A DNA stretch of 64,000 nt from Chitinophaga pinensis (GTDB lineage Bacteria; Bacteroidota; Bacteroidia; 2-12-FULL-35-15): the NCBI GenBank assembly GCA_945885475.1, contig CAMCYR010000009.1:16062-80061 (forward strand), written 5' to 3'. The notes under the pieces are model-generated. The model ran no database searches. It saw only the letters and a program-made list of their open reading frames with translations, and had not been told where the DNA came from. Shown here in pieces: positions 8,701 through 32,926 of this stretch. How positions within the stretch are numbered: the first letter of the stretch is position 1; every line of letters begins with the position of its first letter. Position numbers and translations under genes: made by a program.

Positions 8701-8760
8701 TATTTTATAAAAATCAGAACAGATAATTCGCAAAAAACAATTAAGGTCATCATTAAATAA
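5707..8760 (+). CDS. T9SS-secreted multidomain N-acetylmuramoyl-L-alanine amidase (amidase_2/PGRP-like) with CUB-like, lectin/LamG-like and FN3-like domains and type-A Por C-terminal sorting domain
   Basis: 1017 aa; amidase_2 motifs 'AWHVGSHNPYTIGIEHEG' and 'HTDPGPFWNW' (approx nt 6415-6900); CUB-like 'LNFTAFNTELNWDYLFIYDG...'; C-terminal 'ISPNPFSNNS...GMYFIKIRTD...IKVIIK' Por_Secre_tail (nt ~8515-8757). Confidence 0.8.
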   Translation: MKKLLLFPTLILSHFMSNAIEVIENPFAKSFEKAYSVHPEISRGMLEAVAFCNTRFTHITHRAIESESCAGIPNAYGVMGLTLDGKNYFNNNLITVSELSLISTNEVINVPEKNILAFADAYAKVKIMLNISSNKAADQLTILNYLSELPRETTGQIYALASQEFGYVQFLMNVDYQHQYNFPDHQLDPEKIFGKDNYAILSSSSVIVTDEKVYNKSGQTFQRSALSSDYAPAIWNAAASCNFSSRSSTAVSAVTIHTVQGTYAGCISWFQNCAASVSAHYVARSSDGQITQMVLESMKAWHVGSHNPYTIGIEHEGYISSASWYTNAMYNGSASLVRDICISGYGINPLRCYYGSGCSGGASTCGIGSCTTIKGHQMFSAQTHTDPGPFWNWAKYYLLINNSPVISTITTAAGNYYDSGGSTGNYSNDERLLRLIQPAGATSITLNFTAFNTELNWDYLFIYDGATTAAPLIGQYTGTSSPGSVTSSSGSLLLEFRSDCATVSSGWAANWTSTSGFATTADSIAPTTSVSTSGVWETSNFVANFTDADNAGGSGLEKSYYQVIDFNGTEWRANNNNGFFADNFDDAIHPDWTTAVGTFSINAGSLYQSDEANGNTNIYAALNQSLSDRSLFNFYGKIDGAGISRRAGFHFFSDNGSLTNRGNSYFVWFRVDDGFLQIYKVAGDVFGSPVVNVPFITIAGQWYDYKVIHDHITGKITIYRDNQFVTSWTDPSPLATIGNSISFRTGNANFAINELKIYRSRNPSSANITAGAASTNDIRFQNPNPTTFSAKVKSICADTAGNLSAIFYQNINVDWTAPSAVDTLNDGTGADIAITTSATDLSANWSISDDPHSAIAHYWYAVGTSPGATDVMNWTDNWYSDSVTVSGLSLVNLQTYYFSVKAEDGAGLISEVVSSNGQMVQLIATGTEDQSANSEITISPNPFSNNSIITYSLSKNSNVEIILNDVLGKEIHLFNAGQTAGKHELTINATEMKLSKGMYFIKIRTDNSQKTIKVIIK

Positions 8761-16585: not shown

Positions 16586-19500
16586 ATGATAAAAATTAAA
16601 AAATATACTCTGAGTGTTTTGCTAATTATAATTTTAGCAACTAGTTACTCGCAGAGTTTCAATTTTAAAAATTACAATACAAAGTCTGGTCTGATAGGAA
16701 CAAATGTAAACGGAATCTACCAAGATAGCAAAGGTTATATATGGTTCGCCGTTCAAGGAGGACTAAGCCGCTTCGATGGAAGCCAGTTTCGTAACTTCAC
16801 AAAGGAAAACGGATTAATCGGAAATGATGTTACTAGCATAGTTGGTGATAAAAGAGGGAATATTTGGATTGGAACAACAGAAGGTATTTCAAAATATGAT
16901 GGTGTTTCATTTAAAAATTATTCTACAAAAAATGGCTTAGTAGATAATTTCATCCGGAATGTCTTCATCGACAATAATGATCAACTGTGGGTGGCCACAG
17001 ACAATGGAGGTGTTTCAAAACTAAACAAGGAAACTTTTGAAAACTTTACAATAGCTACAGGCCTTTTGACAAATACTGTTTTTGCTATAACGCAGGATAA
17101 AAAAGGTAATTATTGGTTTGCAACAAATAGTGGGATATGCAAATACAACGGAAATGAAATCATCAACTTCCTCAATCAAAAGAACATTTCAGGAAAAGAA
17201 TTTTTTTCAATACTTATCGATTCAGAAGGGAGCATATTCTTTGCAGGTGAAATAGGAGATGGTTTTATAAAATATTCGAATGGGAAATTTGAAAAAAAAT
17301 CATTCCCTGAATATTTACCTAAAAATAGTCGAATCTTCAGCATGATGGAAGATAAACATGGAAGTATCTGGTTTTCCTCTGATAATGATGGAATTATAAA
17401 ATATGATAAAAAAGATTTTTACACTTACAACGAAAAAAACGGACTTTCTTCCAATCAAGTCTATGCGATAAAAGACGACTACGAAGGCAACATTTGGATT
17501 GGGACAACCAATGGAGGTGCAGATAAGTTAAATAACGAATCGTTTGCCGCTTTCACTGAAAAAGATGGACTATCTGCTAATAAAATAGCTAGCGTTTATA
17601 AAAACAAGGATGCTCTTTTTATTGGAACACAAGGCACAGGACTAAATATTTTTACAAAGGGCTTTTATAATTTCAAACAAGAAATAAAAGAATTAAAAAA
17701 TGAAAAAATATTTTCAATTGCCGAAAATAAGAAAAACGAAATATGGATTGGTACGGAAAAATCCGGGATTTATGTATTGGAAAAGAAAGAAAATAATTAT
17801 TCTATAAAAAAACATATACCAATACTTCTTAATAAATCATTAGGGCTCGTTGATAAAATAATTTTCGATAAAAATGGTAATACTTGGATTTCTACCTATG
17901 GCAATGGTGCATTTTTAATTACTATTTCAGGAGAAATTAAAAACTATTCTACAGAAACAGATTTCCCTTCTAATAATTTATTAACGATACATGAGGATAA
18001 AAAGGGAAATATTTGGTTCGGTTCAATTGATGTTGGAGCTATAAAATATGATGGAAAGAAGTTCATTATCATCAATGAGAAATTGGGCTTATCAAACAAT
18101 GCTGTATGGTCAATCACCGAAGACGAAAATGACAATATATTTTTAGGAACAGGAGAGGGCGGTATTAATTGTGTAAATGGAAAAAACATTACAAAAATTG
18201 ACCGATCTGATGGACTTTGCTCAAACTTTATAGCGACATTGAATTGGGATAGTTTCGAAAAGGTAATTTGGGTTGGAACGAACAATGGAATCAACAAATT
18301 AAAACTTGGTTCAAATTTAAAACCTCTTTCGATACAGTATTATTCTGAAGAAGAAGGATTTAAAGGAACGGAAGTAACATCCTGTTCCCAAGATAAAGAT
18401 GGACTAGTTTGGTTTGCTACGATAAATGGAGTTTACCGCTATGATAGAAAATTTGATCTGCCAAATAAGTCAGCTCCAAAACTTGTTCTGACAGAAATAT
18501 TACTAGACTATAAGAATGTTGATTGGAAGAATTACTGTGACTCTGTTGATATAAGAACTAATATTCCAAAATCGCTTGTACTTGCCTATAATAAAAAACA
18601 CTTAACATTTAATTTCAGAGCCTTAACGACAGACAATGTTAAATACACATTTATTTTACTTGGGCAAGATTCAGAATGGTCACCTCTGAGTTCATTATCT
18701 GAAGCAAATTTCTCAAACATTATCCCGGGAAGATCCTACCAGTTCAAGTTGAGAGCAGTTAATTCAAATGGTATTTGGAGTGATGAAATTGTATCATTTG
18801 AATTTAAAATAAATTCACCTTGGTGGCAAACGTGGTGGTTCATTTCAATAAGCATTCTGCTTGGAATGTCAAGTATATATATTTTCGTAAAACTTCGAAC
18901 AAACAAACTAGCAAAGGAAAAAAAGGTGCTAGAAAAAAATGTTGCTGAAAGAACCTTTGAATTATCGGTAGCATTAAAAGAAATCAATGATAGCATTAAT
19001 TACGCTAAAATAATTCAACACTCCATACTTCCACTATCTGATGAAATCCATTTGGATTTACCTCAATCGTTTGTTTACTATGAACCTAAAAATGTAGTGA
19101 GTGGCGACTTTTACTGGTTTCATAAAAAAAATAAAAAGCTATACTTTGCAGTAGCAGATTGTACGGGACATGGTGTACCAGGAGCATTTATGAGTATGAT
19201 TGGTAGTTCATTATTAAACGAAATATTTAATGAAAATAACAATCCAGATGCCGCTGAGATTCTTAATTTATTGCATTCCAGAGTAAGAAAGGTATTAAAA
19301 CAAGATCGGTACGATGTAAAATCACAAGATGGGATGGATATTTCACTAGTTATTATTGATAATGAGGAAATGAAATTGAATTATGCAGGAGCCAAAAGAC
19401 CTCTTTATTTATTCAGAAAAGAAGATTATGGATATCAATTTATTGAAGCTAAAGCTGATAAGCAATCGATAGGTGGACATCAAAATGAAAATGATTTCAA

Positions 19501-19747
19501 ATTCGCGAACCATTTTTTTTCTCTCCATAAAGGAGATAGTCTATACATGTTCACAGATGGCTATGTTGATCAATTTGGGGGAGGAAATGAAAAAAAATTC
19601 TCTACTAAAAGGTTGAAAGAAACTCTAGAAAGCATGCAGCAATTGGAAATGGATAAACAATCTTCGGAATTATCATCAGTCATCAGTGATTGGAAAGGAA
19701 CCAATGAACAAGTAGATGACATATTAATCATAGGAATTAAAATATAA
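16586..19747 (+). CDS. Sensor protein: two-component-regulator beta-propeller repeats + Y_Y_Y domain + TM helix + PP2C/SpoIIE-type serine phosphatase
   Basis: 1053 aa; >12 'GLxxNxVxxIxxDxxGxxWxGT' propeller repeats; single TM 'WWFISISILLGMSSIYIFV'; C-terminal 'SGDFYWF...FAVADCTGHGVPGAFMSMIG...DGYVDQFGG' PP2C phosphatase motifs. Confidence 0.85.
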   Translation: MIKIKKYTLSVLLIIILATSYSQSFNFKNYNTKSGLIGTNVNGIYQDSKGYIWFAVQGGLSRFDGSQFRNFTKENGLIGNDVTSIVGDKRGNIWIGTTEGISKYDGVSFKNYSTKNGLVDNFIRNVFIDNNDQLWVATDNGGVSKLNKETFENFTIATGLLTNTVFAITQDKKGNYWFATNSGICKYNGNEIINFLNQKNISGKEFFSILIDSEGSIFFAGEIGDGFIKYSNGKFEKKSFPEYLPKNSRIFSMMEDKHGSIWFSSDNDGIIKYDKKDFYTYNEKNGLSSNQVYAIKDDYEGNIWIGTTNGGADKLNNESFAAFTEKDGLSANKIASVYKNKDALFIGTQGTGLNIFTKGFYNFKQEIKELKNEKIFSIAENKKNEIWIGTEKSGIYVLEKKENNYSIKKHIPILLNKSLGLVDKIIFDKNGNTWISTYGNGAFLITISGEIKNYSTETDFPSNNLLTIHEDKKGNIWFGSIDVGAIKYDGKKFIIINEKLGLSNNAVWSITEDENDNIFLGTGEGGINCVNGKNITKIDRSDGLCSNFIATLNWDSFEKVIWVGTNNGINKLKLGSNLKPLSIQYYSEEEGFKGTEVTSCSQDKDGLVWFATINGVYRYDRKFDLPNKSAPKLVLTEILLDYKNVDWKNYCDSVDIRTNIPKSLVLAYNKKHLTFNFRALTTDNVKYTFILLGQDSEWSPLSSLSEANFSNIIPGRSYQFKLRAVNSNGIWSDEIVSFEFKINSPWWQTWWFISISILLGMSSIYIFVKLRTNKLAKEKKVLEKNVAERTFELSVALKEINDSINYAKIIQHSILPLSDEIHLDLPQSFVYYEPKNVVSGDFYWFHKKNKKLYFAVADCTGHGVPGAFMSMIGSSLLNEIFNENNNPDAAEILNLLHSRVRKVLKQDRYDVKSQDGMDISLVIIDNEEMKLNYAGAKRPLYLFRKEDYGYQFIEAKADKQSIGGHQNENDFKFANHFFSLHKGDSLYMFTDGYVDQFGGGNEKKFSTKRLKETLESMQQLEMDKQSSELSSVISDWKGTNEQVDDILIIGIKI

Positions 19748-19801: not shown

Positions 19802-22800
19802 ATGAAACTAAAATTACTTACTATTTTTTACGTCTGTTCTTTTTTAGCAGTAAACGCTAAAAATTTTGATGAGAAGGCTACTATATTAAATTTAAATACT
19901 TCTTCTAATGAGGTTATTTATGGACTGAAAATTTCTCCACTAGCCTGCACTATTACTGGTTCCATTTCATCCCAATCGAATGTAACGTGTTTTGGAGGGA
20001 ATAATGGCACTGCTGAAATTAATGCATCCGGAGGAACGGGTGCACTAACCTATGACTGGACACCGGGAAACCCAATAGGAGATGGCACACCAAGTGTATC
20101 AGGATTAACAGCTGGCACATGGACTTGCACGGTTACTGATATAAACAGTTGCAGCTTTTCACAAACCGTTAATATCAACGAACCAACTCCTATAAATCTT
20201 GCTTTTTTTTCACAAACAGATGTTTCCTGTTATGGAGGAAGTAATGGTGAATTATCTATTTATGCTATTGGGGGAACTGGAACACTGTTGTATGACTGGA
20301 CTCCTGGTTCCTTTCCAGGTGATGGAACACCTAATGTTACTGGTTTATATGCTGGTACATGGATTTGTAATATTACAGACGACAATAACTGTACTAAAGC
20401 AGAAGTGTTTATTATTAATGAACCTCCACCAATAGTTATTAATACAACTTTACAAACAAACGTTTCTTGTAATGCCGGAAATAATGGCGCAACTTCCGTT
20501 TCTGTAAGTGGAGGATCAACTGGAGGATATGTTTACAACTGGACGCCTGGAAATCCAAGCGGCGATGGCACAGAAAGCATTACCGATCTAACGGCTAATA
20601 CATGGACATGCACAGTAACAGATGGAATCGGATGCTTGGGGTCACAAACAATTATTATCACCGAACCTTCAATACTTCTTGTTTCTGCTTCATCGCAAAC
20701 AGCTGTTTCTTGCAACTCTGGAAACGATGGATCAGCTACTGTAACAAGTTCGGGAGGAACGGGATCTATTGCTTTCGATTGGAGTCCAGGAAGTCCTTTC
20801 GGTGATGGATCAGCAAATGTTAGCAACTTAAGTGCTGGCACATATACCTGCACCGTTTCTGATGCAAACGCTTGCGCTGCTTCCGAAACATTTACTATAA
20901 ATGAACCATCAGCTATTAGTGCATCCCAATCTATTTCTATTTGTGCCGGACAATCGATTACAGTTGGCAGTAGCACCTATTTATCTTCAGGAATATACAC
21001 GGATATATTAATGGCTTCTAATGGCTGCGATAGTTCAGTTATTACGAATTTAACTATTCTTCCAGTTGTTACGAGTGCTGGTTTTTCATCTAGTATTTCC
21101 GGAATGACTGTCGCTTTTTCTAACACTGGAATTGATGCAACCAATTACTACTGGGACTTTGGAGACGGCTCTTCATCCACAGCAGCTAATCCAACTCACA
21201 CCTATAATTACGGAGGTAATTTCAATGTCTGCCTTATCGCTTCGAATGGTTGCTCTTCCGAAACCGTTTGCCAACTCATTACTATTGTCTGCATTGCTCC
21301 CCTTGCAAGCTTCAGCTCAAACATAAATGGCTTGTCATTAAATTTCATAAGCACTAGTTCAAATGCTGCAAATTTTAATTGGAATTTCGGAGATGGTAAT
21401 TTTTCAACGAATGAAAATCCTAATTATGTTTATTATGCAGCAGGAACCTATACTGTTTGCCTAAACGTGAGCAATGCCTGCGGAACCTATTCTACCTGCG
21501 ATACTGTTACTGTAAATTGTGTATCACCCATCGCAAACTACAGTTCATCCGTAAGCGGTTTAACAGCAACGTTTATTAACACCTCTTCCAATGCAGCAAG
21601 TGTTTCTTGGAACTTTGGAGATAGTAACATATCTAGTTTAAACAACCCTGTACATGTCTATTCAAATCCGGGAACATATACCGTTACATTAATTGTAAGT
21701 AATGGTTGCGGAACAGATTCTATTGCACAGACGGTGATTGTGAACTGCGCATTGCCGGTTGCAAATTTTATATCTTCTCAAACTGGCTTAACAGCAGAAT
21801 TTGTGTCTACATCTACTAATGCTTCAACATTTCAATGGGATTTTGGTGATGGCGCAACCAGTATTTCTCCCTTTCCTCCGCCTCACCTCTACCCGTCAAC
21901 AGCGGCATATACGGCCTGCTTAATTGCTAGCAATGGTTGTGGAGCAGATACGCTTTGTAATGCGCTAAATATATGTACACCGCCTGTTGCATCCTTCAAC
22001 TCTAACTATACAGCACTTACGGGTATTTTTACAAATACAACGCCTTCGTCTTCTGGAAATTCATATTTATGGACATTTGGTGATGGGACTGCAACAAATT
22101 TTGTCAACCCAACACATCAATTTGGTCTATCAGGCAACAACACTATTTGTTTGACCGCAACAAACAGCTGTGGTACAAACACATTTTGTTTGACAGATAC
22201 ACTATTCTGTGCTCCATTTATGGATCAGGGAATATGTATGGTAACGGTAGATACCGCCAACAATCACAACATTGTATATTGGGACAAAACAGGATTGACG
22301 GGCGTTGATAGTTTCAGAATTTACAGAGAAGTGGCAACGAGTGTATGGTCGCATATTGCCTCAGTTGCTTTCGCAGATTTAAGTGAATATCACGACAACG
22401 TAGCAGATGCTGCTGTAAGTCAATGGGCATATAAAATTGCTATTTTAGATACATGTGGAAATGAATTACCACGGAGTTTATATCATTATACAATACATCT
22501 TCAAGTGTTAGGTGGTGGTAATTTACAATGGAGTCTTTATTCCATAGAGGCCACAGCAAATCCAGTTAATTTTTATCAGGTGTATCGGGACGACTTCGGT
22601 ACGGGTAATTTTTTACCGATTAGTTTAACCATACCTGGTACATTTACTTCCTATACCGATATTAATTTTGCATCGTTTCCACTTGCAGATTATATGGTGC
22701 AGGTTGATTGGAATATTTCTTGTACGCCCACGCGCATAGCAATCAATACCTCACACTCCAATATTCGTCACCAATCTATCTCTGTCATAGGAATTTCTGA

Positions 22801-23044
22801 GAATGATCGCGCTTCAGCAGTTACTATTTTTCCTAATCCGGCTAACGACAATGTGATGATTGAAGTTGAAAACCTTATTGGTCAAGAGCTAAAAATAATG
22901 AATGCATTGGGAGAACTTATTTTTAATACGAAGATAAAAGATAAGAAAACGGCAGTTGATATTTCTTCTTTTTCTAATGGAATTTATTCAATTCAAATTG
23001 AAACAGAAAATGGAAGAATTGTAAAAAAATTGGTGAAAAACTAA
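19802..23044 (+). CDS. T9SS cargo protein: 4 SprB repeats + Cys module + ~6 PKD domains + type-A CTD
   Basis: 1080 aa; SprB repeats 'CxGGxNGxA...GGTGxxxYDWTPGxPxGDGT...LxAGTxTCTVTDxNxC'; PKD 'WDFGDG...NPTHTY...'; C-terminal 'IFPNPANDNVMIEVENL...GIYSIQIETENG' Por_Secre_tail. Confidence 0.85.
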   Translation: MKLKLLTIFYVCSFLAVNAKNFDEKATILNLNTSSNEVIYGLKISPLACTITGSISSQSNVTCFGGNNGTAEINASGGTGALTYDWTPGNPIGDGTPSVSGLTAGTWTCTVTDINSCSFSQTVNINEPTPINLAFFSQTDVSCYGGSNGELSIYAIGGTGTLLYDWTPGSFPGDGTPNVTGLYAGTWICNITDDNNCTKAEVFIINEPPPIVINTTLQTNVSCNAGNNGATSVSVSGGSTGGYVYNWTPGNPSGDGTESITDLTANTWTCTVTDGIGCLGSQTIIITEPSILLVSASSQTAVSCNSGNDGSATVTSSGGTGSIAFDWSPGSPFGDGSANVSNLSAGTYTCTVSDANACAASETFTINEPSAISASQSISICAGQSITVGSSTYLSSGIYTDILMASNGCDSSVITNLTILPVVTSAGFSSSISGMTVAFSNTGIDATNYYWDFGDGSSSTAANPTHTYNYGGNFNVCLIASNGCSSETVCQLITIVCIAPLASFSSNINGLSLNFISTSSNAANFNWNFGDGNFSTNENPNYVYYAAGTYTVCLNVSNACGTYSTCDTVTVNCVSPIANYSSSVSGLTATFINTSSNAASVSWNFGDSNISSLNNPVHVYSNPGTYTVTLIVSNGCGTDSIAQTVIVNCALPVANFISSQTGLTAEFVSTSTNASTFQWDFGDGATSISPFPPPHLYPSTAAYTACLIASNGCGADTLCNALNICTPPVASFNSNYTALTGIFTNTTPSSSGNSYLWTFGDGTATNFVNPTHQFGLSGNNTICLTATNSCGTNTFCLTDTLFCAPFMDQGICMVTVDTANNHNIVYWDKTGLTGVDSFRIYREVATSVWSHIASVAFADLSEYHDNVADAAVSQWAYKIAILDTCGNELPRSLYHYTIHLQVLGGGNLQWSLYSIEATANPVNFYQVYRDDFGTGNFLPISLTIPGTFTSYTDINFASFPLADYMVQVDWNISCTPTRIAINTSHSNIRHQSISVIGISENDRASAVTIFPNPANDNVMIEVENLIGQELKIMNALGELIFNTKIKDKKTAVDISSFSNGIYSIQIETENGRIVKKLVKN

Positions 23045-23073: not shown

Positions 23074-26000
23074 TTGAACAAAATGCAACTGAAACTGAAA
23101 TTATTTTTTGCTTTACTTACTGTTGTGACTTTTTCTGCAACTGCACAAAATTTTGCTTGGGCAAAAGCGATGGTTGGAACTGGGACAACGGATGAAGGTT
23201 CACAATCGGTTGCCATTGACGCTGCAGGCAATGTATACACTACAGGACAATTCTTCGGAACAGTTGATTTTGATCCGGGCGCAAGTACCTTTAATTTGAC
23301 TTCTACTGGTTTGGAAGATATTTTCATCTCGAAGCTGGATGCTTCCGGGAATTTTTTATGGGCTAAAAAAATTGGGGGAACTGGTACTGATGTTGGCTGG
23401 AAAATTGCTCTTGATGCAAGCTCAAATGTAGTTGTATCTGGTTATTTCAGATACACAGCTGATTTTGACCCGGGTTCGGCTGTTTATACTTTATCACAAG
23501 TTGGAACAGCTGCTTATGCTGATATTTTTGTGCTTAAACTTGATACAAATGGGAATTTTGTTTGGGTAAAACAATTTGGGGCATCATCCGTTGATGATGA
23601 TGCATATGGTTTATATATCGACAATTTAAGTAATATATATATAACAGGTTACTTCTGGGGAACAATAGATTTTGACCCAGGAGCGGGAATAGCCAATTTA
23701 ACACCTACTGGAAATGCTGATATCTATATTTTAAAATTGGATGCTTCGGGAAGTTTTGTGTGGGCAAAAAAAATGGGCGGAACCCTATTAGATGAAGGAA
23801 AAGGCATTTATGTGGATGGTTTAGGCAATGTATTCACCGTTGGTGTTTTTAGAGGAACAGTAGATTTTGATCCGGGTTCAGGTACTGCAAATCTAATATC
23901 GGCAGGCAGTGATGATATTTTTATTTCGAAGCTCGACGCTTCAGGAAATTTTAACTGGGCAAAATCAATCGGTTCTACCGGAATTGATTTCGCGTCTTCT
24001 ATTTCTGTGGATGCTTCGGGAAATATATTTATATCCGGTTATTTTAACGGTACAGTAGATTTTGATCCCGGCTCAGGAATTTCAAATTTGACATCCGCAG
24101 GTATTGAAGATATTTTTGTTTGTAAACTTGATGCCACCGGAAATTATAGTTGGGCAAAACGAATTGGAAGTACTTCAACTGATAAAGCAGTCGCTTCAAT
24201 TGTTGACGCATCCGGAAACATTCAAATAACTGGTTCTTATTCAGGAACCGTAGATTTCGATCCTGGCGCAACAACAACAAATCTCAGCTCTGCAGGTCTA
24301 ACAGATATTTTCGTATGCACGCTTGATGCTTCCGGTAATTTCCTTAGAGCAAAAACAATAGGTGGTACAGGAAATGACGCTGGAAATTCAATTGCAGTGT
24401 CTAGTTCAGGAAGTAGTTATATTTCTGGAGATTACAGCGGAACAGTAGATTTTGATCCAAGTGCAAGTACCTTTAACTTAAGTTCAGGTGGTGGTAAGGA
24501 TATTTTTGTAATGAAATTTTTAGCACCCTGTAACATTACAAACTCGAGTTCCCAAACGAATCTAACTTGTAATGGAATATGTACTGGATCAGCTACAATG
24601 ATTCCTAGTGGCGGAACATCTCCTTACACCTACTCATGGGCACCTTCAGGAGGTTCAGCAGCAACGGCAAATTCATTATGTGCAGGAAGTTATACCTGTA
24701 CCGTTACCGACAATGTCGGCTGTACGTCAACCAGAACGTATATCCTTACACAGCCGACTGCAATAAGTGTTGGTGCGTCTTTGCAATCAAACGTAATTTG
24801 TAATGGGGGAAACAATGGTGCAGCGAGTGTAAATGCAAGCGGAGGAACGGGAACATTAACTTATAATTGGACACCTGGAAATCCAACAGGCGATGGAACA
24901 GCCAGTGTTTCTGGTTTAACTGCCGGAACGTGGACGTGCACAGTAACGGATGCTAATGGCTGCAGTGGCTCTCGCACATTTACAATCACGCAACCACCAG
25001 CAATTGCTGTAAGCATTGCTTCACAAACAAATACAACATGTAATGGTGGTACGAATGGGGCTGCCAGTGTTACAGCTTCTGGGGGTGTAGGAATTTTGGC
25101 ATACGACTGGATGCCAGGAAACCCAACGGGAGATGGCACCAATAGCATTTCAGGGATATTCGCCAATACGTGGACTTGCTATGTAAGCGATGAAAATGGT
25201 TGTACTGCTTCACAAGCAATCACAATTACTCAGCCACCTGCAATTAGCGTTCTTACTTCATCTATCTCTCCCCCATCTTGCAATGGTGGAAATAATGGAT
25301 CCGCTTCCGTATCTGCATCTGGAGGAACAGGAAGTTTATCATACAACTGGACACCAGGAAACCCAACGGGTGATGGAACAACCATTGTTTCGGGTCTAAC
25401 TGCAGGATCTTGGACCTGCACTGCAACAGACGGAAGTGGGTGTACAGGAGCAAGAACAATAAATCTAACACAACCAACTGCAATTTCAGTTGCTGCTGTT
25501 TCCCAGACAAATGTTTCTTGTAACGGAGGTAGCAATGGATCAGCAAGTGCTTCGGCTTCGGGAGGTACAGGTACTTTATCTTTCAACTGGACGCCCTATG
25601 GAGGAACAGCTTCAACGGCAACCGCATTAACTGCCGGGACCTATACGTGTACCGTTACCGATGCAAATCTGTGTTCAGCATCCAGAACATTTATAATCAC
25701 GCAACCTACCGCGATCGTTGTGAATGCCGTTTCACAAACAAACGTTTCCTGCAATGCCGGAAATAATGGCGCTGCAACGATATCCGCTTCTGGAGGAACA
25801 GGTGCATATACATACAATTGGACGCCATTCGGAGGAACGGGAATAACGGCTTCAGGTTTAATTGCAGGAACATATACCTGCACCGTTACCGATGCAAATG
25901 CATGTTCGGCGAGTAGAATATTTACGATCACGCAACCAACAGCGATTGTTGTAAATGCAGTTTCTCAAACAAACGTTTCCTGCAATGCAGGAAATAATGG

Positions 26001-29000
26001 CGCTGCAACGATAGCTGCCTCAGGCGGAACAGGGGCATTCACCTATAATTGGACGCCAGGAAATCCTACAGGCGATGGAACTGTTGGTGTTTCTGGACTA
26101 ACTGCAGGATCGTGGACCTGCACGGTTACGGATGCAAATGCATGTTCTGCTTCACGCATTATTACAATCACTCAACCTACTCCTATTTCTGTTGGAATTT
26201 CTTCCCAAACAAATGTTTCTTGTAACGGAGGAAGTAATGGCGCTGCTTCCATATTCGCTTCAGGTGGTACTGGCGCACTCACTTATAACTGGACTCCAGG
26301 AAATCCAACGGGAGATGGCACAGCAAGTGTTTCGGGATTAACTGTAGGATCGTGGACCTGCACTGTAACGGATGCAAATGGATGTAATTCCACACAAATA
26401 TTCACGATTACTCAACCAACAGTAATTAATATTTCTGCAACAGCACAAAGCAATGTATCTTGTAACGGCGGAAACAATGGAACGATTACAGTAAACGCAA
26501 CTGGCGGAACAGGTGCTTTCACTTATAACTGGACGCCATCCGGAGGAACGGGAATTACAGCTACTGGTTTAATTGCAGGAACATATACCTGCACCGTTAC
26601 CGATGCAAATCTTTGTACAGCCTCAAGATCATTTACGATCACGCAGCCAACAGCTATTGTTGTAAATGCAGTTTCACAAACAAACGTTTCCTGCAATGCA
26701 GGGAATAATGGCGCTGCAACGATATCTGCTTCTGGCGGAACAGGTGCATTCACCTATAATTGGACGCCAGGAAATCCTTCAGGCGATGGAACAGTCAGTG
26801 TTTCGGGATTAACTGCCGGTTCATGGACCTGCACGGTTACCGATGCAAATGCATGTTCTGCTTCACGCATTATTACAATCACAGAGCCTACTGCTATTTC
26901 AGTAGTAGCTGTTTCCCAAACAAATGTTTCTTGTAACGGAGGAAGTAACGGTGCTGCAGCTGTTTCTGCTTCAGGCGGAACAGGTGCATATACTTACAAT
27001 TGGACGCCAGGAAATCCTACAGGAGACGGAACAGCAAGTGTTACTGGACTAAGTGCTGGATCGTGGACCTGCACGGTTACCGATGCAAATGGTTGTGCAG
27101 CATCCAGAACATTCACAATCACGCAACCATCAGTTATTGTTGTGAATGCCGTTTCACAAACAAACGTTTCCTGTAATGCAGGAAGCAATGGCGCTGCAAC
27201 GATATCTGCTTCAGGTGGAACAGGGGCATTCACATACAATTGGACGCCATTCGGAGGAACGGGAATTACGGCTTCAGGTTTAATTGCAGGAACGTATACT
27301 TGTACCGTTACCGATGCAAATGCATGTTCGGCGAGTAGAACATTTACGATCACACAACCAACTGCTATTGTTGTGAATACAGTTTCACAAACAAACGTTT
27401 CCTGCAATGCAGGAAGTAATGGCGCTGCAACGATATCTGCCTCGGGCGGAACAGGGGCATTCACCTATAATTGGACGCCAGGAAATCCTACAGGCGATGG
27501 AACTGTTAGTGTTTCGGGACTTACTGCAGGTTCATGGACTTGCACGGTGACAGATGCAAATGGATGTTCTGCTTCACGCATTATTTCAATCACAGAACCT
27601 ACTCCTATTGCTGTTGTTGCTTTTTCCCAAACAAATGTTTCTTGTAATGCAGGAAATAATGGCGCTGCAACGATATCAGCTTCTGGAGGAACAGGCGCAC
27701 TCACTTATAATTGGACTCCAGGAAATCCAACGGGAGATGGAACAGCAAGTGTTACTGGATTAACTGCCGGCTCATGGACCTGCACGGTTACTGATGCAAA
27801 TGCATGTTCTGCTTCACGCATTATTACAATCACAGAACCTACTGCTATCTCCGTTGCTGCTGTTTCCCAAACAAATGTTTCGTGTAACGGAGGAAGCAAT
27901 GGATCAGCTACTGCATCTGCTGCAGGAGGAACGGGTACTTTATCTTTCAACTGGACGCCATACGGGGGATCTGCTTCATCGGCAACCGGATTAACTGCAG
28001 GAACTTACACCTGCACCGTTACCGATGCAAATGCTTGTTTGGCAAGTAGAACATTTACGATCACAGAACCAACTGCAATTTCAGTTCTGTCTGCTTCCCA
28101 AACAAATGTTTCCTGCAATTCCGGGAACAATGCAGCGGCAACGATAGCTGCTTCAGGCGGAACAGGTGCTTACACATACAACTGGACGCCATTCGGAGGA
28201 ACGGGAATTTCAGCTTCAGGTTTAATTGCAGGAACATACACCTGCACTGTTACTGATGTAAATCTTTGTTCATCATCACTTACATTTTCTATAACAGAGC
28301 CAGCAGCAATTTCGGTAACGATAGTTTCTCAAACAAACGTTTCCTGCAATGCAGGAAATAATGGCGCTGCAACGATATCTGCTGTTGGAGGAACAGGTGC
28401 ATTTACTTACAATTGGACACCAGGAAATCCTACCGGAGATGGAACAGCAAGTGTTTCTGAACTAAGCGCAGGGGCTTTTACCTGCACTGTTACAGATGAA
28501 AATGGGTGTTCGGCATTCCGAATTATAACTATCACAGAACCTACTCCTATTTCTGTTGGAGTTTCTTCTCAAACAAATGTTTCTTGTAACGGAGGAAGTA
28601 ATGGTTCAGCTTCGGTATTCGCTTCAGGTGGTACTGGTAGTATTTCCTTCAACTGGCTTCCCTTTGGAGGCAATTCAGCATTCACAACGGGATTATCCGC
28701 AGGAACTTATTCTTGTAATATTTCGGATGCAAATGGCTGTTCAGCAATTCAACTGTTTACTATTTTAGAACCAACAGTAATTATAGTTGCTCCCGTTTCC
28801 CAAACCAATATCTCTTGTAATGGAGGCAATAACGGAGCTGCAGCGGTTTCTGCTTCGGGAGGAACAGGTGTTTTATTATTTAATTGGGCTCCTTCTGGCG
28901 GTTCTGCCCCAGCAATAACAGGGCTTACGGCCGACACGTATACCTGTACCGTTTCTGATGAGAATGGATGCAGCGCAACACAAACTTTTATCATTACTGA

Positions 29001-30405
29001 ACCTTCGCAAATAATAGTTTCTTCTTCTTCACAAAACAATGTATCGTGTAATGGAGGAAGCAATGGTGATGCGAGTGCAAGTGCAACAGGTGGCACAGGA
29101 TTGCTCAGCTACAGCTGGACTCCCTTTGGAGGTTCAACATCATCCGCAACAGGATTAAGTGCTGGAATTTATACTGTTACAGCCACGGATGAAAATGGTT
29201 GTAGCTCTTCACTCCAATTCGACATTTCAGAACCTACCACAATTGTTGTGAACACTGTTTCGCAAACAAATAATTTGTGTAATGGTGGAAATAATGGTAA
29301 TGCTGCTATTTCGGTTATTGGAGGAATTGCAGGATACACTTACGATTGGACGCCCGGAAATCCGACAGGTGATGCAAGCAATTCTATCAGTAATTTAACA
29401 GCAGGAATCTGGAATTGCTCTGTAACAGATGCGAATGGATGTGTTACCAACCATACCGTTTCAATTACAGAACCTGCAGCGATAATTATAAATCAATCTA
29501 ACATTATTTGTGCGGGTGCTTCTATTACTGTAGGAGTAAATACATATTCCAGCTCAGGAGTTTACACCGATGTATTAATTGCAGCGAATGGTTGCGATAG
29601 TACTGTAATTACTAATTTAACAGTGAATCCCGCACTATCAGCATCACAAACCATTGTTCGTTGCGCAGGTGAATCAATCACAGTTGGAGTAAATACGTAT
29701 TCAACGTCAGGAGTTTATACCGATGTATTAAATGCAGTGAATGGTTGCGATAGTACTGTAACAACGAATTTAACTGTGAATTCTCCTATTTCAGGATCTC
29801 AAACAATTATTCGCTGTGCAGGTGAATCCATTACGGTTGGATTAAATACCTATTCCATCTCAGGAGTTTACACCGATGTATTAACTGCAGCGAATGGGTG
29901 CGATAGTACCGTAACAACTAATTTAACGGTGAAACCTTCCATAAACATTGCTACTTCTCTTTCAGGAACAACAATCACTGCAATAGCAAATCCAGCGACT
30001 TATCAATGGATAGATTGCAATAATAGTAATGTGATAATTGCTGGTGCAACTAATCAATCTTTTGTTTCAACAATGAATGGTAGCTATGCGGTTATTGTTA
30101 CACAAAATGGATGCAGTGATACGAGTGCATGCGTGAACATTACAAATACAGGAATAAATGGATCAATTCAGAACAGTGAATTATTAATTTATCCAAATCC
30201 AACGAACGAAAAAGTAATTATCGAACTTGGAAATTTGATCGGACAACATTTAAAAATAATGAATGCTATTGGTCAGATTGTTTATGCTGCTGAAATAAAA
30301 AATACAAAAATAGAAATCGATCTTTCTGATTTTGCGAACGGAATATATACAATTCAGGTGCAAACAGCAAAGGGTATCGTTCTGAAAAAATTGGTAAAGA
30401 ATTAA
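23074..30405 (+). CDS. Giant T9SS cargo protein: ~9 SBBP beta-propeller repeats + ~21 SprB repeats + 3 Cys modules + type-A CTD
   Basis: 2443 aa; N-terminal repeats 'GxDxxxxIAxDxxGNxYxTGxFxGTxDFDPG...DIFIxKLDASGNFxWAK'; SprB repeat array; C-terminal 'LIYPNPTNEKVIIELGNL...GIYTIQVQTAKG' CTD. Confidence 0.85.
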   Translation: MNKMQLKLKLFFALLTVVTFSATAQNFAWAKAMVGTGTTDEGSQSVAIDAAGNVYTTGQFFGTVDFDPGASTFNLTSTGLEDIFISKLDASGNFLWAKKIGGTGTDVGWKIALDASSNVVVSGYFRYTADFDPGSAVYTLSQVGTAAYADIFVLKLDTNGNFVWVKQFGASSVDDDAYGLYIDNLSNIYITGYFWGTIDFDPGAGIANLTPTGNADIYILKLDASGSFVWAKKMGGTLLDEGKGIYVDGLGNVFTVGVFRGTVDFDPGSGTANLISAGSDDIFISKLDASGNFNWAKSIGSTGIDFASSISVDASGNIFISGYFNGTVDFDPGSGISNLTSAGIEDIFVCKLDATGNYSWAKRIGSTSTDKAVASIVDASGNIQITGSYSGTVDFDPGATTTNLSSAGLTDIFVCTLDASGNFLRAKTIGGTGNDAGNSIAVSSSGSSYISGDYSGTVDFDPSASTFNLSSGGGKDIFVMKFLAPCNITNSSSQTNLTCNGICTGSATMIPSGGTSPYTYSWAPSGGSAATANSLCAGSYTCTVTDNVGCTSTRTYILTQPTAISVGASLQSNVICNGGNNGAASVNASGGTGTLTYNWTPGNPTGDGTASVSGLTAGTWTCTVTDANGCSGSRTFTITQPPAIAVSIASQTNTTCNGGTNGAASVTASGGVGILAYDWMPGNPTGDGTNSISGIFANTWTCYVSDENGCTASQAITITQPPAISVLTSSISPPSCNGGNNGSASVSASGGTGSLSYNWTPGNPTGDGTTIVSGLTAGSWTCTATDGSGCTGARTINLTQPTAISVAAVSQTNVSCNGGSNGSASASASGGTGTLSFNWTPYGGTASTATALTAGTYTCTVTDANLCSASRTFIITQPTAIVVNAVSQTNVSCNAGNNGAATISASGGTGAYTYNWTPFGGTGITASGLIAGTYTCTVTDANACSASRIFTITQPTAIVVNAVSQTNVSCNAGNNGAATIAASGGTGAFTYNWTPGNPTGDGTVGVSGLTAGSWTCTVTDANACSASRIITITQPTPISVGISSQTNVSCNGGSNGAASIFASGGTGALTYNWTPGNPTGDGTASVSGLTVGSWTCTVTDANGCNSTQIFTITQPTVINISATAQSNVSCNGGNNGTITVNATGGTGAFTYNWTPSGGTGITATGLIAGTYTCTVTDANLCTASRSFTITQPTAIVVNAVSQTNVSCNAGNNGAATISASGGTGAFTYNWTPGNPSGDGTVSVSGLTAGSWTCTVTDANACSASRIITITEPTAISVVAVSQTNVSCNGGSNGAAAVSASGGTGAYTYNWTPGNPTGDGTASVTGLSAGSWTCTVTDANGCAASRTFTITQPSVIVVNAVSQTNVSCNAGSNGAATISASGGTGAFTYNWTPFGGTGITASGLIAGTYTCTVTDANACSASRTFTITQPTAIVVNTVSQTNVSCNAGSNGAATISASGGTGAFTYNWTPGNPTGDGTVSVSGLTAGSWTCTVTDANGCSASRIISITEPTPIAVVAFSQTNVSCNAGNNGAATISASGGTGALTYNWTPGNPTGDGTASVTGLTAGSWTCTVTDANACSASRIITITEPTAISVAAVSQTNVSCNGGSNGSATASAAGGTGTLSFNWTPYGGSASSATGLTAGTYTCTVTDANACLASRTFTITEPTAISVLSASQTNVSCNSGNNAAATIAASGGTGAYTYNWTPFGGTGISASGLIAGTYTCTVTDVNLCSSSLTFSITEPAAISVTIVSQTNVSCNAGNNGAATISAVGGTGAFTYNWTPGNPTGDGTASVSELSAGAFTCTVTDENGCSAFRIITITEPTPISVGVSSQTNVSCNGGSNGSASVFASGGTGSISFNWLPFGGNSAFTTGLSAGTYSCNISDANGCSAIQLFTILEPTVIIVAPVSQTNISCNGGNNGAAAVSASGGTGVLLFNWAPSGGSAPAITGLTADTYTCTVSDENGCSATQTFIITEPSQIIVSSSSQNNVSCNGGSNGDASASATGGTGLLSYSWTPFGGSTSSATGLSAGIYTVTATDENGCSSSLQFDISEPTTIVVNTVSQTNNLCNGGNNGNAAISVIGGIAGYTYDWTPGNPTGDASNSISNLTAGIWNCSVTDANGCVTNHTVSITEPAAIIINQSNIICAGASITVGVNTYSSSGVYTDVLIAANGCDSTVITNLTVNPALSASQTIVRCAGESITVGVNTYSTSGVYTDVLNAVNGCDSTVTTNLTVNSPISGSQTIIRCAGESITVGLNTYSISGVYTDVLTAANGCDSTVTTNLTVKPSINIATSLSGTTITAIANPATYQWIDCNNSNVIIAGATNQSFVSTMNGSYAVIVTQNGCSDTSACVNITNTGINGSIQNSELLIYPNPTNEKVIIELGNLIGQHLKIMNAIGQIVYAAEIKNTKIEIDLSDFANGIYTIQVQTAKGIVLKKLVKN
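24527..29490 (+). repeat. In-frame tandem array of ~21 x ~240-bp SprB-repeat coding units, many near-identical at the nucleotide level, with higher-order ~1.4-kb periodicity
   Basis: Direct reading: e.g. units beginning ~25696 and ~27120 align with roughly 90 % or more identity by eye (not computed) across >450 nt; recurring 4-unit pattern (TPYGG / TPFGG / GNPTGDGTV / GNPTGDGTAS variants). Confidence 0.85.
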
Positions 30406-30463
30406 TTTATAATTATAGAAACTAATTGATTACTAATTAAAGTTGTAAAAAGAAAATAGTTAA

Positions 30464-32926
30464 TTGATCGAAAAAAAAATGAAAAAGATAATTGTCGAAA
30501 AAAAATCAACTCTAGGAATATTCGTGTTACTCCTATTTATTTTACTAAACAATTTGGTTATAAATGCAGCAACTACGTTTCAGAAAACATTTGGCGGCAC
30601 ATCTGATGAATACGGCTATGCGACCGAACAATTAAGTGATGGAGGATATATCATGTGTGGAAGAACAATCAGTTTCGGAGTTGGTGGATTCGACAATTAT
30701 TTAATTCGATTAAATGCCAATGGAGATACCTTATGGACAAAAACATATGGCAATACAGGTTACGATGAAGCACAATCTATCAAACAAACGAGTGACGGCG
30801 GGTTTATTATGGTTGGGCAAACGGCAACTGTAGATTATGCTGGCGATGTGTACCTCGTAAAAACGGATGCGAATGGTGTACTGGTTTGGTCGACTGCATT
30901 TGGAACGGCAACTAAATTTGATTTCGGTTATTCTGTTCGACAAACGTCTGACGGTGGATATATTATTGCTGGACTAACCAATAGCACAGGTGCTGGACTT
31001 AGGGATGTTCTACTAATAAAAACAAATTCGACAGGTGTTTTACAATGGTCAAAAACCTATGGCGGCGCGGCTGACGACGAAGCCAGGTCTGTTGAAGAAA
31101 CAGCAGATGGAGGATTTATAGTATCCGGATTTACGCAAAGCTATGGTTCTGGCTACCAAATGTATCTTATCAAAACAAATTCAACTGGAAATGTTACATG
31201 GTCGAAAACCTTTGGTGGTGGCGGCTTGGAACTAGGCTATTCAGTAAAACAAACTTCTGATGGCGGGTATGTTCTATTAGGATATTCCGACTCGTATGGC
31301 TCAGGACTTTTAGATGTTCTGCTTGTAAAACTCACATCAACAGGAAGTATATCCTGGAGCAAAACCTACGGAGGCACTGCCGACGATTATGGACTGTGTA
31401 TATATATTACTATCGATGGTGGATATATTATTTCTGGTAGAACATCAAGTTATGGTGCCGGTGGAGGTGATTATTATTTAATAAAAACAGATGTGAATGG
31501 CGTTCACCAATGGTCGAAAGCATATGGTGGAACAGCTGTTGATCAAGCTGGAAATGTTCGACAAACGGCGGATGGAGGCTATATACTAACAGGCTACACA
31601 ATGAGTTTTGGTGCAGGGATAAGAGAGGCTTATCTTGTAAAAACAGATGCTACTGGTGCATCAGGATGTAATGAATTTACGGCTACGACTCAAACAACTT
31701 CAGCCACTGTAGCAAACAGTACAGGTGCCACAGAAGGTCTTGGTCTAAGTGCAGTAAGCCCAGTTACGGCAACAAGAAGAGTAAAGCCTGTTGTCACTAC
31801 TTCATGTTCTTCAAGTGCTTGTACTTTAACAATTGCCTCCTTTGCACAAACAAATGTTACTTGCAATGGAAGTACGAATGGAACTTCTTCCATTTCAAGT
31901 ACAGGTGGCGTTGGTACCTTAACTTACAACTGGACACCTGGAAATCCAATAGGAGATGGGACAGCAAGTGTTACAAATTTAAGCGCTGGAACTTATAGTT
32001 GCACAGTTACGGATGCAAATGGTTGCACGGCATTGCAAACAGTTACAATTACTCAACCGAATGTACTTGTTTCAACTATAACTTCACAAACAAACGTGAG
32101 TTGTTTTGCAGGAACAAATGGAGCTGCAAGTATTTTAGTAAGTGGTGGAACAACTGCATATAGTTACAACTGGACGCCCGGAAATCCAACTGGAGACGGA
32201 ACAACAAGTGTTACAAATTTAAGCGCTGGAAGTTATAGTTGCACCATCACAGATGCAAACGGATGCGCGGCATCGCAATCAGTTACAATCACGCAAGCTG
32301 CTGCCATAAATAACGCACAAAATATTTCTATTTGTGCCGGACAAACTCTTGTTATTGGAACAAATAGCTATTCAAGTTCAGGAATTTATACGGATGTGTT
32401 AGCTGCAATAAATGGATGCGACAGCACTGTAACAACTACTCTCACTGTAAATCCTTTAATAGATTTAACAACTACTACATCTGGAAATTCAATCACTGCA
32501 AATACAAGTCCAGCGAACTATCAATGGATTGATTGTAATAATGGAAACAGTTTACTTGTTGGAGCAACATCGCAAGTATATACTTCAGCAGCGAATGGAA
32601 ATTATGCTGTAATTATTAGTCAAAATGGATGCAGTGATACGAGTGCTTGTGTAACTATTACAACTACCGGTATTGTATTAAAACCAAACAATGAATACTT
32701 ACAGATTTTTCCTAATCCAACAACGTCAACAATAACGTTAAAAGGACTTTCAGCTGATAGTGATATACATATCATGAATGCATTGGGACAAACACTATTT
32801 TCTAAAACGATCAATCAAAAGGATGTAGAAAAAATCATTGATCTTTCTGATTTTAAAAACGGGATGTATTATATACAAATAGAGAATAAAGAGACGACCG
32901 TATCAAGAAAAGTAATAAAGGAATAA
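30464..32926 (+). CDS. T9SS cargo protein: ~8 beta-propeller-type ~50-aa repeats + S/T linker + 2 SprB repeats + two Cys modules + type-A CTD
   Basis: 820 aa; repeats 'YGGxxxDxAxSVxQTSDGGYIxxGxTxSxGxGxxDxLLIKTNSTGxxxWSKTYGG'; C-terminal 'QIFPNPTTSTITLKGL...GMYYIQIENKET' CTD. Confidence 0.85.
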   Translation: MIEKKMKKIIVEKKSTLGIFVLLLFILLNNLVINAATTFQKTFGGTSDEYGYATEQLSDGGYIMCGRTISFGVGGFDNYLIRLNANGDTLWTKTYGNTGYDEAQSIKQTSDGGFIMVGQTATVDYAGDVYLVKTDANGVLVWSTAFGTATKFDFGYSVRQTSDGGYIIAGLTNSTGAGLRDVLLIKTNSTGVLQWSKTYGGAADDEARSVEETADGGFIVSGFTQSYGSGYQMYLIKTNSTGNVTWSKTFGGGGLELGYSVKQTSDGGYVLLGYSDSYGSGLLDVLLVKLTSTGSISWSKTYGGTADDYGLCIYITIDGGYIISGRTSSYGAGGGDYYLIKTDVNGVHQWSKAYGGTAVDQAGNVRQTADGGYILTGYTMSFGAGIREAYLVKTDATGASGCNEFTATTQTTSATVANSTGATEGLGLSAVSPVTATRRVKPVVTTSCSSSACTLTIASFAQTNVTCNGSTNGTSSISSTGGVGTLTYNWTPGNPIGDGTASVTNLSAGTYSCTVTDANGCTALQTVTITQPNVLVSTITSQTNVSCFAGTNGAASILVSGGTTAYSYNWTPGNPTGDGTTSVTNLSAGSYSCTITDANGCAASQSVTITQAAAINNAQNISICAGQTLVIGTNSYSSSGIYTDVLAAINGCDSTVTTTLTVNPLIDLTTTTSGNSITANTSPANYQWIDCNNGNSLLVGATSQVYTSAANGNYAVIISQNGCSDTSACVTITTTGIVLKPNNEYLQIFPNPTTSTITLKGLSADSDIHIMNALGQTLFSKTINQKDVEKIIDLSDFKNGMYYIQIENKETTVSRKVIKE

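Follow-up and report, generated by a model that had tools for sequence, protein, structure and literature searches.

A 51-residue two-cysteine module of T9SS cargo proteins in Bacteroidota, most likely a shortened immunoglobulin-like domain and absent from Pfam and NCBIfam

A 64,000-nucleotide (nt) stretch of a Chitinophaga pinensis assembly (GCA_945885475.1, contig CAMCYR010000009.1, positions 16,062 to 80,061; 'the window' in the following) raises the question of what kind of domain is repeated near the C-terminus of a 2443-amino-acid (aa) protein encoded in it. The open reading frame (ORF) of this protein extends from 23074 to 30405 on the + strand, flanked by ORFs of 1080 aa (19802-23044) and 820 aa (30464-32926). 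All three proteins carry a type A C-terminal domain (CTD) of the type IX secretion system (T9SS), which scored 52-64 bits with PF18962 (cutoff 27) and 44-54 bits with TIGR04183 (cutoff 23). The translation of 29506-29940 contains three tandem copies of the pattern CAGxSITVGxNTYSxSGVYTDVLxAxNGCDSTVxTNLTV. The original prediction described this element (module A) as an unrecognised module of ~45 aa, which is present once more in each neighbouring protein, always between SprB repeats and the CTD. A second shared module (module B), likewise taken to be an unrecognised family, was described behind it in two of the proteins.

The whole window was surveyed for module A in six-frame translation, with a regular expression and with a family hidden Markov model (HMM). 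The survey revealed five copies: three in tandem in the 2443-aa protein, one in the 1080-aa protein and one in the 820-aa protein. The conserved cores of the tandem copies (aa 2144-2187, 2195-2238 and 2246-2289; nt 29503-29940) follow each other with a period of 51 aa. The cores in the neighbours comprise aa 379-422 (nt 20936-21067) and aa 622-665 (nt 32327-32458), respectively. In full length, and all on the + strand, the units of the 2443-aa protein occupy 29482-29634 (unit 1, aa 2137-2187, 70.1 bits), 29635-29787 (unit 2, aa 2188-2238, 67.1 bits) and 29788-29940 (unit 3, aa 2239-2289, 71.0 bits), that of the 1080-aa protein 20915-21067 (aa 372-422, 65.0 bits), and that of the 820-aa protein 32306-32458 (aa 615-665, 67.9 bits). 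The HMM scores of the five copies (65-71 bits) correspond to independent E-values of 3e-19 to 4e-21, and no other stretch of the window scored above 14.4 bits. Pairwise protein identity between the five copies is 61-82%, and DNA identity among the three tandem copies is 75-82%. The repetition of module A is far beyond chance.

The triplication in the giant protein and the single copy in each neighbour were thus as predicted, whereas the unit is 51 aa and not ~45 aa long. The 2443-aa protein consists, in this order, of SBBP-type beta-propeller repeats, 21 SprB units, three copies of module A, module B and the CTD. In the 820-aa protein a repeat-rich N-terminal region and two SprB units precede module A, module B and the CTD. 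The predicted placement between SprB repeats and CTD does not describe the 1080-aa protein, in which four SprB units and module A are followed by five PKD domains and ~200 aa without assignment before the CTD is reached.

The structure of three module A units with module B was predicted by AlphaFold2 from a 123-sequence alignment. Module A was predicted with a pLDDT (predicted local distance difference test) of 91-97 (95-97 in unit 1, 88-97 in unit 3) and with five strands per 51-aa period, which in unit 2 occupy model residues 48-57, 62-64, 67-69, 73-80 and 86-96. Strand 1 is made up of seven to eight residues that look like a linker and of the segment x-I-x-x-C, and ends at the first Cys. 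Since the apparent linker is part of strand 1, the unit comprises 51 aa without a linker. Strands 2 and 3 are short (ITV and NTY), strand 4 is formed by GVYTDVLI, and the second Cys stands directly before the long strand 5, DSTVTTNLTVN. In the model module A appears as a 51-residue all-beta mini-domain of five strands with two near-invariant Cys. With one Cys at the end of strand 1 and the other at the start of strand 5, a single disulfide within the domain could form.

Column statistics of 5,396 module A copies showed the highest conservation at the first Cys (100%), Asp31 (99%), Ser32 (98%) and Cys30 (96%), followed by Gly18 and Gly29 (91% each), Leu38 (89%), Tyr20 (85%), Gly4 (83%) and Val40 (78%). 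Position 33 is Ile, Val, Thr, Leu or Ala in 96% of the copies. The same pattern was seen in 2,853 units registered at 51 aa, and across both sets the second Cys is conserved to 96-99%. Positions 4-18 (strands 2-3 and the loops) and the stretch between the cores are variable. As judged from the alignments, this is the conservation pattern of a structural scaffold. The Cys pair, conserved to 96-100%, and the compact beta domain predicted with pLDDT 91-97 bear out the original view of module A as a real, recurring unit with two bracketing Cys.

Is module A a known domain? Among the InterPro member databases the check covered Pfam and NCBIfam. Isolated module A sequences gave no meaningful match in Pfam-A (2025) or NCBIfam r20, even at E<=10, and none of the five window copies was matched by a full-length Ig_7 or PKD-type HMM. 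The SprB HMM (PF13573, gathering threshold 28 bits) did not match isolated module A or module B even at E<=10, and in the full-length proteins all SprB stretches lie upstream of module A. Chain sequences of the PDB were not matched by a single module A sequence nor by a 97-copy profile. The 97 family copies of this profile, compared with Pfam, yielded five marginal PKD_4 matches (best E 0.004) and one PKD match. A match to the NCBIfam model 'listeriolysin S TOMM' (21.9 bits, cutoff 33, no stretches) was rejected as an artefact of Cys/Ser/Thr composition. Pfam matches on repeat-rich giants with 15-40 copies (PilM, DUF6319, KOW2_Spt5 and others) contained no significant stretch and were rejected as summed repeat noise. 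Five giants have named source records: four are 'hypothetical protein' of Paludibacteraceae (e.g. 5020 aa with 83 copies) and one is a 'PKD domain-containing protein'. A search of full texts for 'NGCDS' gave no relevant paper. On the two databases that could be tested, module A appears not to be modelled by any curated family, and for module A the original description as an unnamed module is upheld.

Module A is not confined to the three proteins of the window. A first homologue search with three units as query gave 333 matches, mostly fragments with two to five tandem copies; all three homologue searches returned matches shorter than ~1.75 times the query, and the search appears to limit length. 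In a HMMER search of 1.84 billion cluster representatives, 31,447 were matched at E<=1e-3 by a profile built from 97 diverse copies; at E<=1e-10 the number falls to 20,313, and at E<=1e-30 to 8,937. Pfam and NCBIfam have missed a domain that is present in over 31,000 protein clusters (50% identity) and that makes up 20-83% of the sequence of the 150 top-scoring proteins (774-6310 aa, 15-86 copies each). In these 150 proteins 64% of the 4,895 inter-copy spacings are exactly 51 aa, and 93% of the full copies contain exactly two Cys.

In 58 of the same proteins the C-terminal 110 residues matched CHU_C (type B T9SS CTD), and in another 50 they matched Por_Secre_tail (type A). Among the remaining C-termini, inspected by eye, ~20 end inside a repeat (truncated contigs) and ~20 are tails resembling Bacteroidales-type CTDs. 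With T9SS CTDs in 108 of the 150 top proteins, module A does travel with them, as had been anticipated. One genome per GTDB species was scanned with ten consensus-like copies, a query biased toward close relatives. The scan confirmed 422 stretches, and the best 76 loci were all from Bacteroidota (Flavobacteriales, Crocinitomicaceae, Vicingaceae, Saprospiraceae, Chitinophagales and Bacteroidales).

Similar repeats were also seen in phage records. GenBank LR745206.1, a 634,780-bp 'uncultured phage', contains module A-like repeats at five places (580413-580835) and is the only such record among 50,697. The best structural match to three module A units in BFVD (E 1.3e-11, 27% identity) was A0A8D9FS04, which comes from an uncultured marine phage and is a 'putative signaling protein' of 1423 aa. 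A phage origin of module A was rejected on these numbers, one of 50,697 phage records and one BFVD model; the occurrences could come from huge phages of Bacteroidota or from mis-binned contigs.

Module B was found by its HMM, in the six-frame translation of the window, at 29941-30153 (aa 2290-2360 of the 2443-aa protein, 97.1 bits) and at 32459-32671 (aa 666-736 of the 820-aa protein, 95.4 bits), both on the + strand and nowhere else, in agreement with the approximate positions given for it. It comprises ~71 aa with invariant Cys in the segments W-I-D-C, N-G-C and S-x-C, and 92 of 100 copies contain three Cys. There is one module B per protein, and 25 of the 29 copies end at a distance of 81-93 aa from the C-terminus, directly before the type A CTD. 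Used alone as homologue query it gave two matches, whereas module B together with the CTD gave 93 proteins, nearly all with PF18962. Of the 73 cases with enough upstream sequence, 50 have a module A copy whose end is no more than 20 aa away from module B on the upstream side; the sample is biased by the many proteins that came from module A searches.

The original prediction regarded module B, too, as an unrecognised family. The two window copies had no Pfam match at E<=10, yet among 43 family members Ig_7 was matched in 17 (best E 2.5e-4) and PKD_3 in 10 (best E 9.7e-4). The one scored case above E 1e-3 (P0280) reached 18.3 bits with Ig_7, compared to the cutoff of 27.3 bits. In a second protein (P0326) the best Ig_7 stretch coincided with module B, and the whole protein scored 29.2 bits from two stretches. 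Alignment of module B with an Ig_7-type alignment by hhalign gave 96.4% (E 1.4e-9), and the module B profile matched phage Ig-like sequences of the PDB (9c2d_S, 3.3e-7; 9ncf_S, 5e-6; Hoc, 1.5e-3).

The AlphaFold2 model of module B and CTD, made with a dedicated alignment, had a mean pLDDT of 91.8 and showed a seven-strand sandwich (residues 9-71; pLDDT 88-97 for the copy of the 2443-aa protein) followed by the CTD. An earlier model, based on a shallow module B alignment, had pLDDT below 50 in module B and was unreliable. Foldseek matched the model to tandem Ig proteins and to GhpA at 7.5e-5 to 1e-3, and the predicted CTD superposed on the CTDs of NucA and RemA with TMt 0.80-0.84. According to the model, module B has an Ig-like seven-strand sandwich similar to solved Ig domains. 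In Ig_7 the first-strand Cys (x-C-x-G) is paired with the G-C of the last hairpin; this first-strand Cys was not found in the module B alignment, which has three Cys of its own. These comparisons indicate that module B is homologous to Ig_7, although most of its scores fall short of the curated cutoff. It is no new domain but a diverged branch of the known Ig_7/PKD-like Ig family, and for it the claim of an unrecognised family had to be given up. Its probable role is that of a final folded spacer, which separates the cargo from the CTD that is cleaved off or anchored. With module B recognised as a standard Ig domain in front of the CTD, the boundaries of type A CTDs are more easily delimited.

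To what, then, is module A related? Residues 15-42 were aligned by hhalign with the last hairpin of an Ig_7-type alignment (89.9%, E 1.7e-6), and residues 17-40 with the last hairpin of the SprB units of the window (57.8%, 24 columns). The start of module A, I-C-x-G-(D/E)-S, mirrors the start of Ig_7-type domains, C-x-G-D-S-x-T-L. Because of the likeness at the last hairpin and at the N-terminal I-C-x-G, module A is most likely a shortened Ig_7/PKD-like Ig domain. It would have lost the middle strands of such a domain and kept the strand at its start (I-C-x-G-x-S) and the hairpin at its end (G-x-Y-...-G-C-...-L-x-V-x-P). Module A is a distinct sequence family, a very abundant new variant within the Ig/PKD-like domains of Bacteroidota T9SS cargo.

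A Foldseek search of the PDB with the model of three units gave only four matches below 1e-3 (3e-7 to 4e-6), all of them chains of GhpA. This protein, the grappling hook of Aureispira, is a T9SS substrate of 5898 aa; its stem is a succession of 52 Ig-like repeats, which have disulfides and each show glycan densities (bioRxiv 10.1101/2024.01.29.577165). A second tier of matches, at E>=2e-3, consisted of generic tandem Ig proteins and Rib domains.

We consider it probable that module A is a new family of Bacteroidota T9SS proteins, a shortened Ig_7/PKD-like bead, putatively stapled by a disulfide and probably glycosylated, that acts as spacer or stalk. Each bead, as a rigid and stackable structural element, would fold in the periplasm, where one intradomain disulfide would staple it and one O-glycan would be added to the Ser of C-D-S, and it would then leave the cell folded via the T9SS. 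One to three beads, as in the window, would space the functional or repeat regions from module B and the CTD, whereas tens of beads (up to 86) would form long stalks or fibres of giant surface proteins.

The glycan was proposed from the C-D-S motif. The general O-glycosylation sequon of Bacteroidota is D-(S/T)-(A/I/L/V/M/T), the motif of T. forsythia was extended to C, S, G and F at the third position, and T9SS cargo is the largest class of O-glycoproteins in T. forsythia (PMC8550257). Four of the five module A copies of the window contain D-S-T. The 2443-aa protein has only three sequons (aa 2175, 2226 and 2277), all in module A, compared to 10.8+-3.2 expected from shuffled sequences. That the C-D-S Ser carries a glycan seems, on sequence and by analogy, about evenly balanced between true and false. 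Sequons were also noticed elsewhere in the cluster: four of the five PKD domains of the 1080-aa protein have one at the start of the last strand (aa 567, DTV; 639, DSI; 716, DTL; 799, DTL). The placement of these motifs suggests a preferred glycosylation position in the Ig-like domains of these proteins.

Several observations weigh against the reading of module A as a shortened, glycosylated Ig-like spacer. The hhalign link to Ig_7 spans 28 columns of an ad hoc alignment of five sequences, three of which are matched by the Pfam Ig_7 model, on their parent proteins. The TM-scores to GhpA are 0.28-0.33, with root-mean-square deviations of 10-13 A over multi-domain alignments, so that the fold assignment of the single unit is not rigorous; low scores are expected for flexible multi-domain chains. 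The module A profile did not match the 5898-aa GhpA sequence at E<=10, and the resemblance is therefore structural and architectural and not one of family membership. Confinement to Bacteroidota was deduced from the 76 best genome loci, found with consensus-like patterns, and not from all 31,447 matches. The module A copy of the 1080-aa protein reads D-S-S, which fits the extended T. forsythia motif only, and Ser greatly exceeds Thr at the sequon position (98% versus 1%), though the sequon accepts both. The variability of positions 4-18 is of a kind often found in binding loops. The spacer role, finally, was deduced from architecture only.

That C-D-S is a purely structural turn or a metal site, and module A unglycosylated, is possible without being probable. 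The marked preference for Ser agrees with it, and Asp, at 99%, is as conserved as the Cys residues, more than is usual for glycosylation sites. Such strict retention of Asp-Ser, together with the preference for Ser, speaks for a structural role, such as a turn or cap after the disulfide, instead of or besides glycosylation. On the other hand, the third position is drawn to 96% from the residues that the sequon allows, an argument weakened by the fact that the start of a beta-strand favours the same residues. The unglycosylated alternative also has to face the heavy O-glycosylation of T9SS cargo, the most heavily modified class in T. forsythia, the glycan densities on every Ig-like domain of GhpA, and the depletion of the 2443-aa protein in sequons outside module A. 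The near-invariant C-D-S-[IVT] offers a concrete and testable site for periodic O-glycosylation.

A bolder version of the glycosylated bead, which we find doubtful, is that module A units are a large, uncatalogued family of miniaturised Ig-derived beads in each of which C-D-S-[IVT] couples the disulfide to an obligatory O-glycan, so that arrays of up to 86 copies form disulfide-stapled and regularly glycosylated 'bottle-brush' fibres on the surface of Bacteroidota cells. If this were true, these T9SS-exported fibres would be a folded bacterial counterpart to mucin-type stalks.

Module A could, alternatively, be primarily adhesive, a lectin-like or protein-binding domain whose copy number raises avidity. 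It does sit in adhesin-like T9SS surface proteins beside SprB, PKD and beta-propeller regions, its strands 2-3 and loops vary as mentioned above, and GhpA, its closest structural analogue, belongs to a prey-capturing appendage. But conservation falls on glycines, on buried aliphatic and aromatic residues, on the two Cys and on Asp-Ser, a pattern of the structural kind, and no conserved surface patch was evident in the column statistics. In GhpA the repeats form the rigid stem; the loop-like structure is the N-terminal region, of which residues 26-1402 were separately predicted and fitted into a subtomogram average (bioRxiv 10.1101/2024.01.29.577165). Tens of near-identical tandem copies are, moreover, typical of stalks. 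A binding function is unlikely, and less likely than that of a spacer.

Very unlikely is the possibility that module A represents a SprB or PKD repeat in degenerate or truncated form; it would then be an ordinary case of a Pfam family that already exists, with scores too low for the threshold. A phmmer search with SprB units and the module A HMM cross-matched weakly at sG-x-Y-...-nGC, and the hhalign alignment with the SprB units and the PKD_4 matches in five of the 97 copies (E>=0.004) point in the same direction. Against this, neither SprB nor PKD nor Ig_7 matched the window copies even at E<=10. The likeness to these domains is confined to the last 24-28 residues, in a unit of 51 aa as opposed to 75-85 aa. 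The near-invariant C-D-S is missing from SprB units, and module A makes up arrays of its own, homogeneous and sharply periodic at 51 aa, with up to 86 copies. Proteins that consist mostly of module A have no genuine Pfam domain match. Chance or low complexity as the origin of module A was ruled out by the HMM scores and by the size of the homologous family.

In the 2443-aa protein an array of 21 SprB-type Ig-like units of ~75-80 aa each (aa 493-2140; 24550-29493, + strand) was matched by PF13573 in 21 stretches with 546.6 bits. Its CTD (aa 2372-2443; 30187-30402, +) scored 64.4 bits with PF18962 and 44.2 bits with TIGR04183, and it is this CTD that resembles those of NucA and RemA. The CTD of the 820-aa protein (aa 748-820; 32705-32923, +) scored 52.4 and 48 bits, and that of the 1080-aa protein (aa 1009-1080; 22826-23041, +) 61.6 and 54.3 bits, respectively. 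The first 490 residues of the 2443-aa protein (23074-24550) are beta-propeller-like repeats, with matches to SBBP (PF06739) and, below cutoff, to NF047494 (LipL53-like). The N-terminal part of the 820-aa protein (30464-31800) is a beta-propeller-like repeat array with a match to the delta-60 repeat (TIGR02608) below cutoff. These N-terminal arrays may be the functional heads of the two proteins. In the 1080-aa protein the stretch between the last PKD domain and the CTD (22214-22825, aa ~805-1008) had no Pfam or NCBIfam match; these ~200 aa may be another unmodelled domain.

The genes around the three cargo genes are housekeeping genes, with the exception of a regulator and of a fourth T9SS cargo. 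Directly upstream, on the same strand (16586-19747, +), lies the gene of a 1053-aa Reg_prop/Y_Y_Y/SpoIIE protein (SpoIIE being a PP2C phosphatase), which also has a transmembrane-like segment and might be a sensor or regulator for the cargo cluster. The fourth cargo, of type A, is encoded at 5707-8760 (+) and combines Amidase_2 (N-acetylmuramoyl-L-alanine amidase), CUB and a Por_Secre_tail CTD; the presence of CUB is unusual for a bacterial protein. A contig of the Bacteroidota metagenome-assembled genome RH-14apr17-211 (CANIFU010000005.1, 23221-29352) is collinear with 26880-32296 of the window at 92.5% DNA identity; it belongs to a close relative and not to the source organism.

Module A merits a curated family and a glycoproteomic test, though it will be no surprise to specialists. 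A defined 51-residue unit would improve the annotation of T9SS cargo across the sampled Bacteroidota, among them Flavobacteriales, Chitinophagales, Saprospiraceae and Bacteroidales (including Paludibacteraceae), and provides a compact, predictable building block for the study of long bacterial surface fibres.

Among the known systems close to module A, the SprB units (PF13573) occur in the same proteins, directly upstream of it. Their G-x-(Y/W)-x-C-x-V-x-D-x-N-G-C resembles the G-x-Y-x-D-x-L-x-x-x-N-G-C of module A, but they are 75-80 aa long and have three Cys and a GGxGxxxYxW core. The Ig_7 (PF19081, 'Ig-like domain CHU_C associated') and PKD-like domains (PF16820, PF19408, PF18911) are Ig-like domains of Bacteroidota T9SS cargo. 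Like module A they have a Cys in the first strand (CxGxS) and, in the last hairpin, a G-C ahead of x-V-x-V-x-P. Module A differs from them by its length (51 aa versus ~84 aa), by the lack of the central Y-x-W strands and by the invariant C-D-S, and is undetected by their HMMs. Rib domains and the short Ig-like stalk repeats of Gram-positive adhesins (PDB 6s5y, E 3e-3) are, like module A, small tandem beta domains that form stalks, but they are unrelated in sequence, have no Cys pair, and belong to another phylum and another secretion route. GhpA (PDB 9flp, 9fls, 9flw and 9fly), the best and only significant structural match to the model of three units, is a giant T9SS substrate with tens of small Ig-like repeats. 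The GhpA disulfides are described as linking neighbouring domains, unlike the disulfide envisaged within each module A unit, and GhpA is a heptamer, whereas nothing suggests a heptamer for module A proteins.

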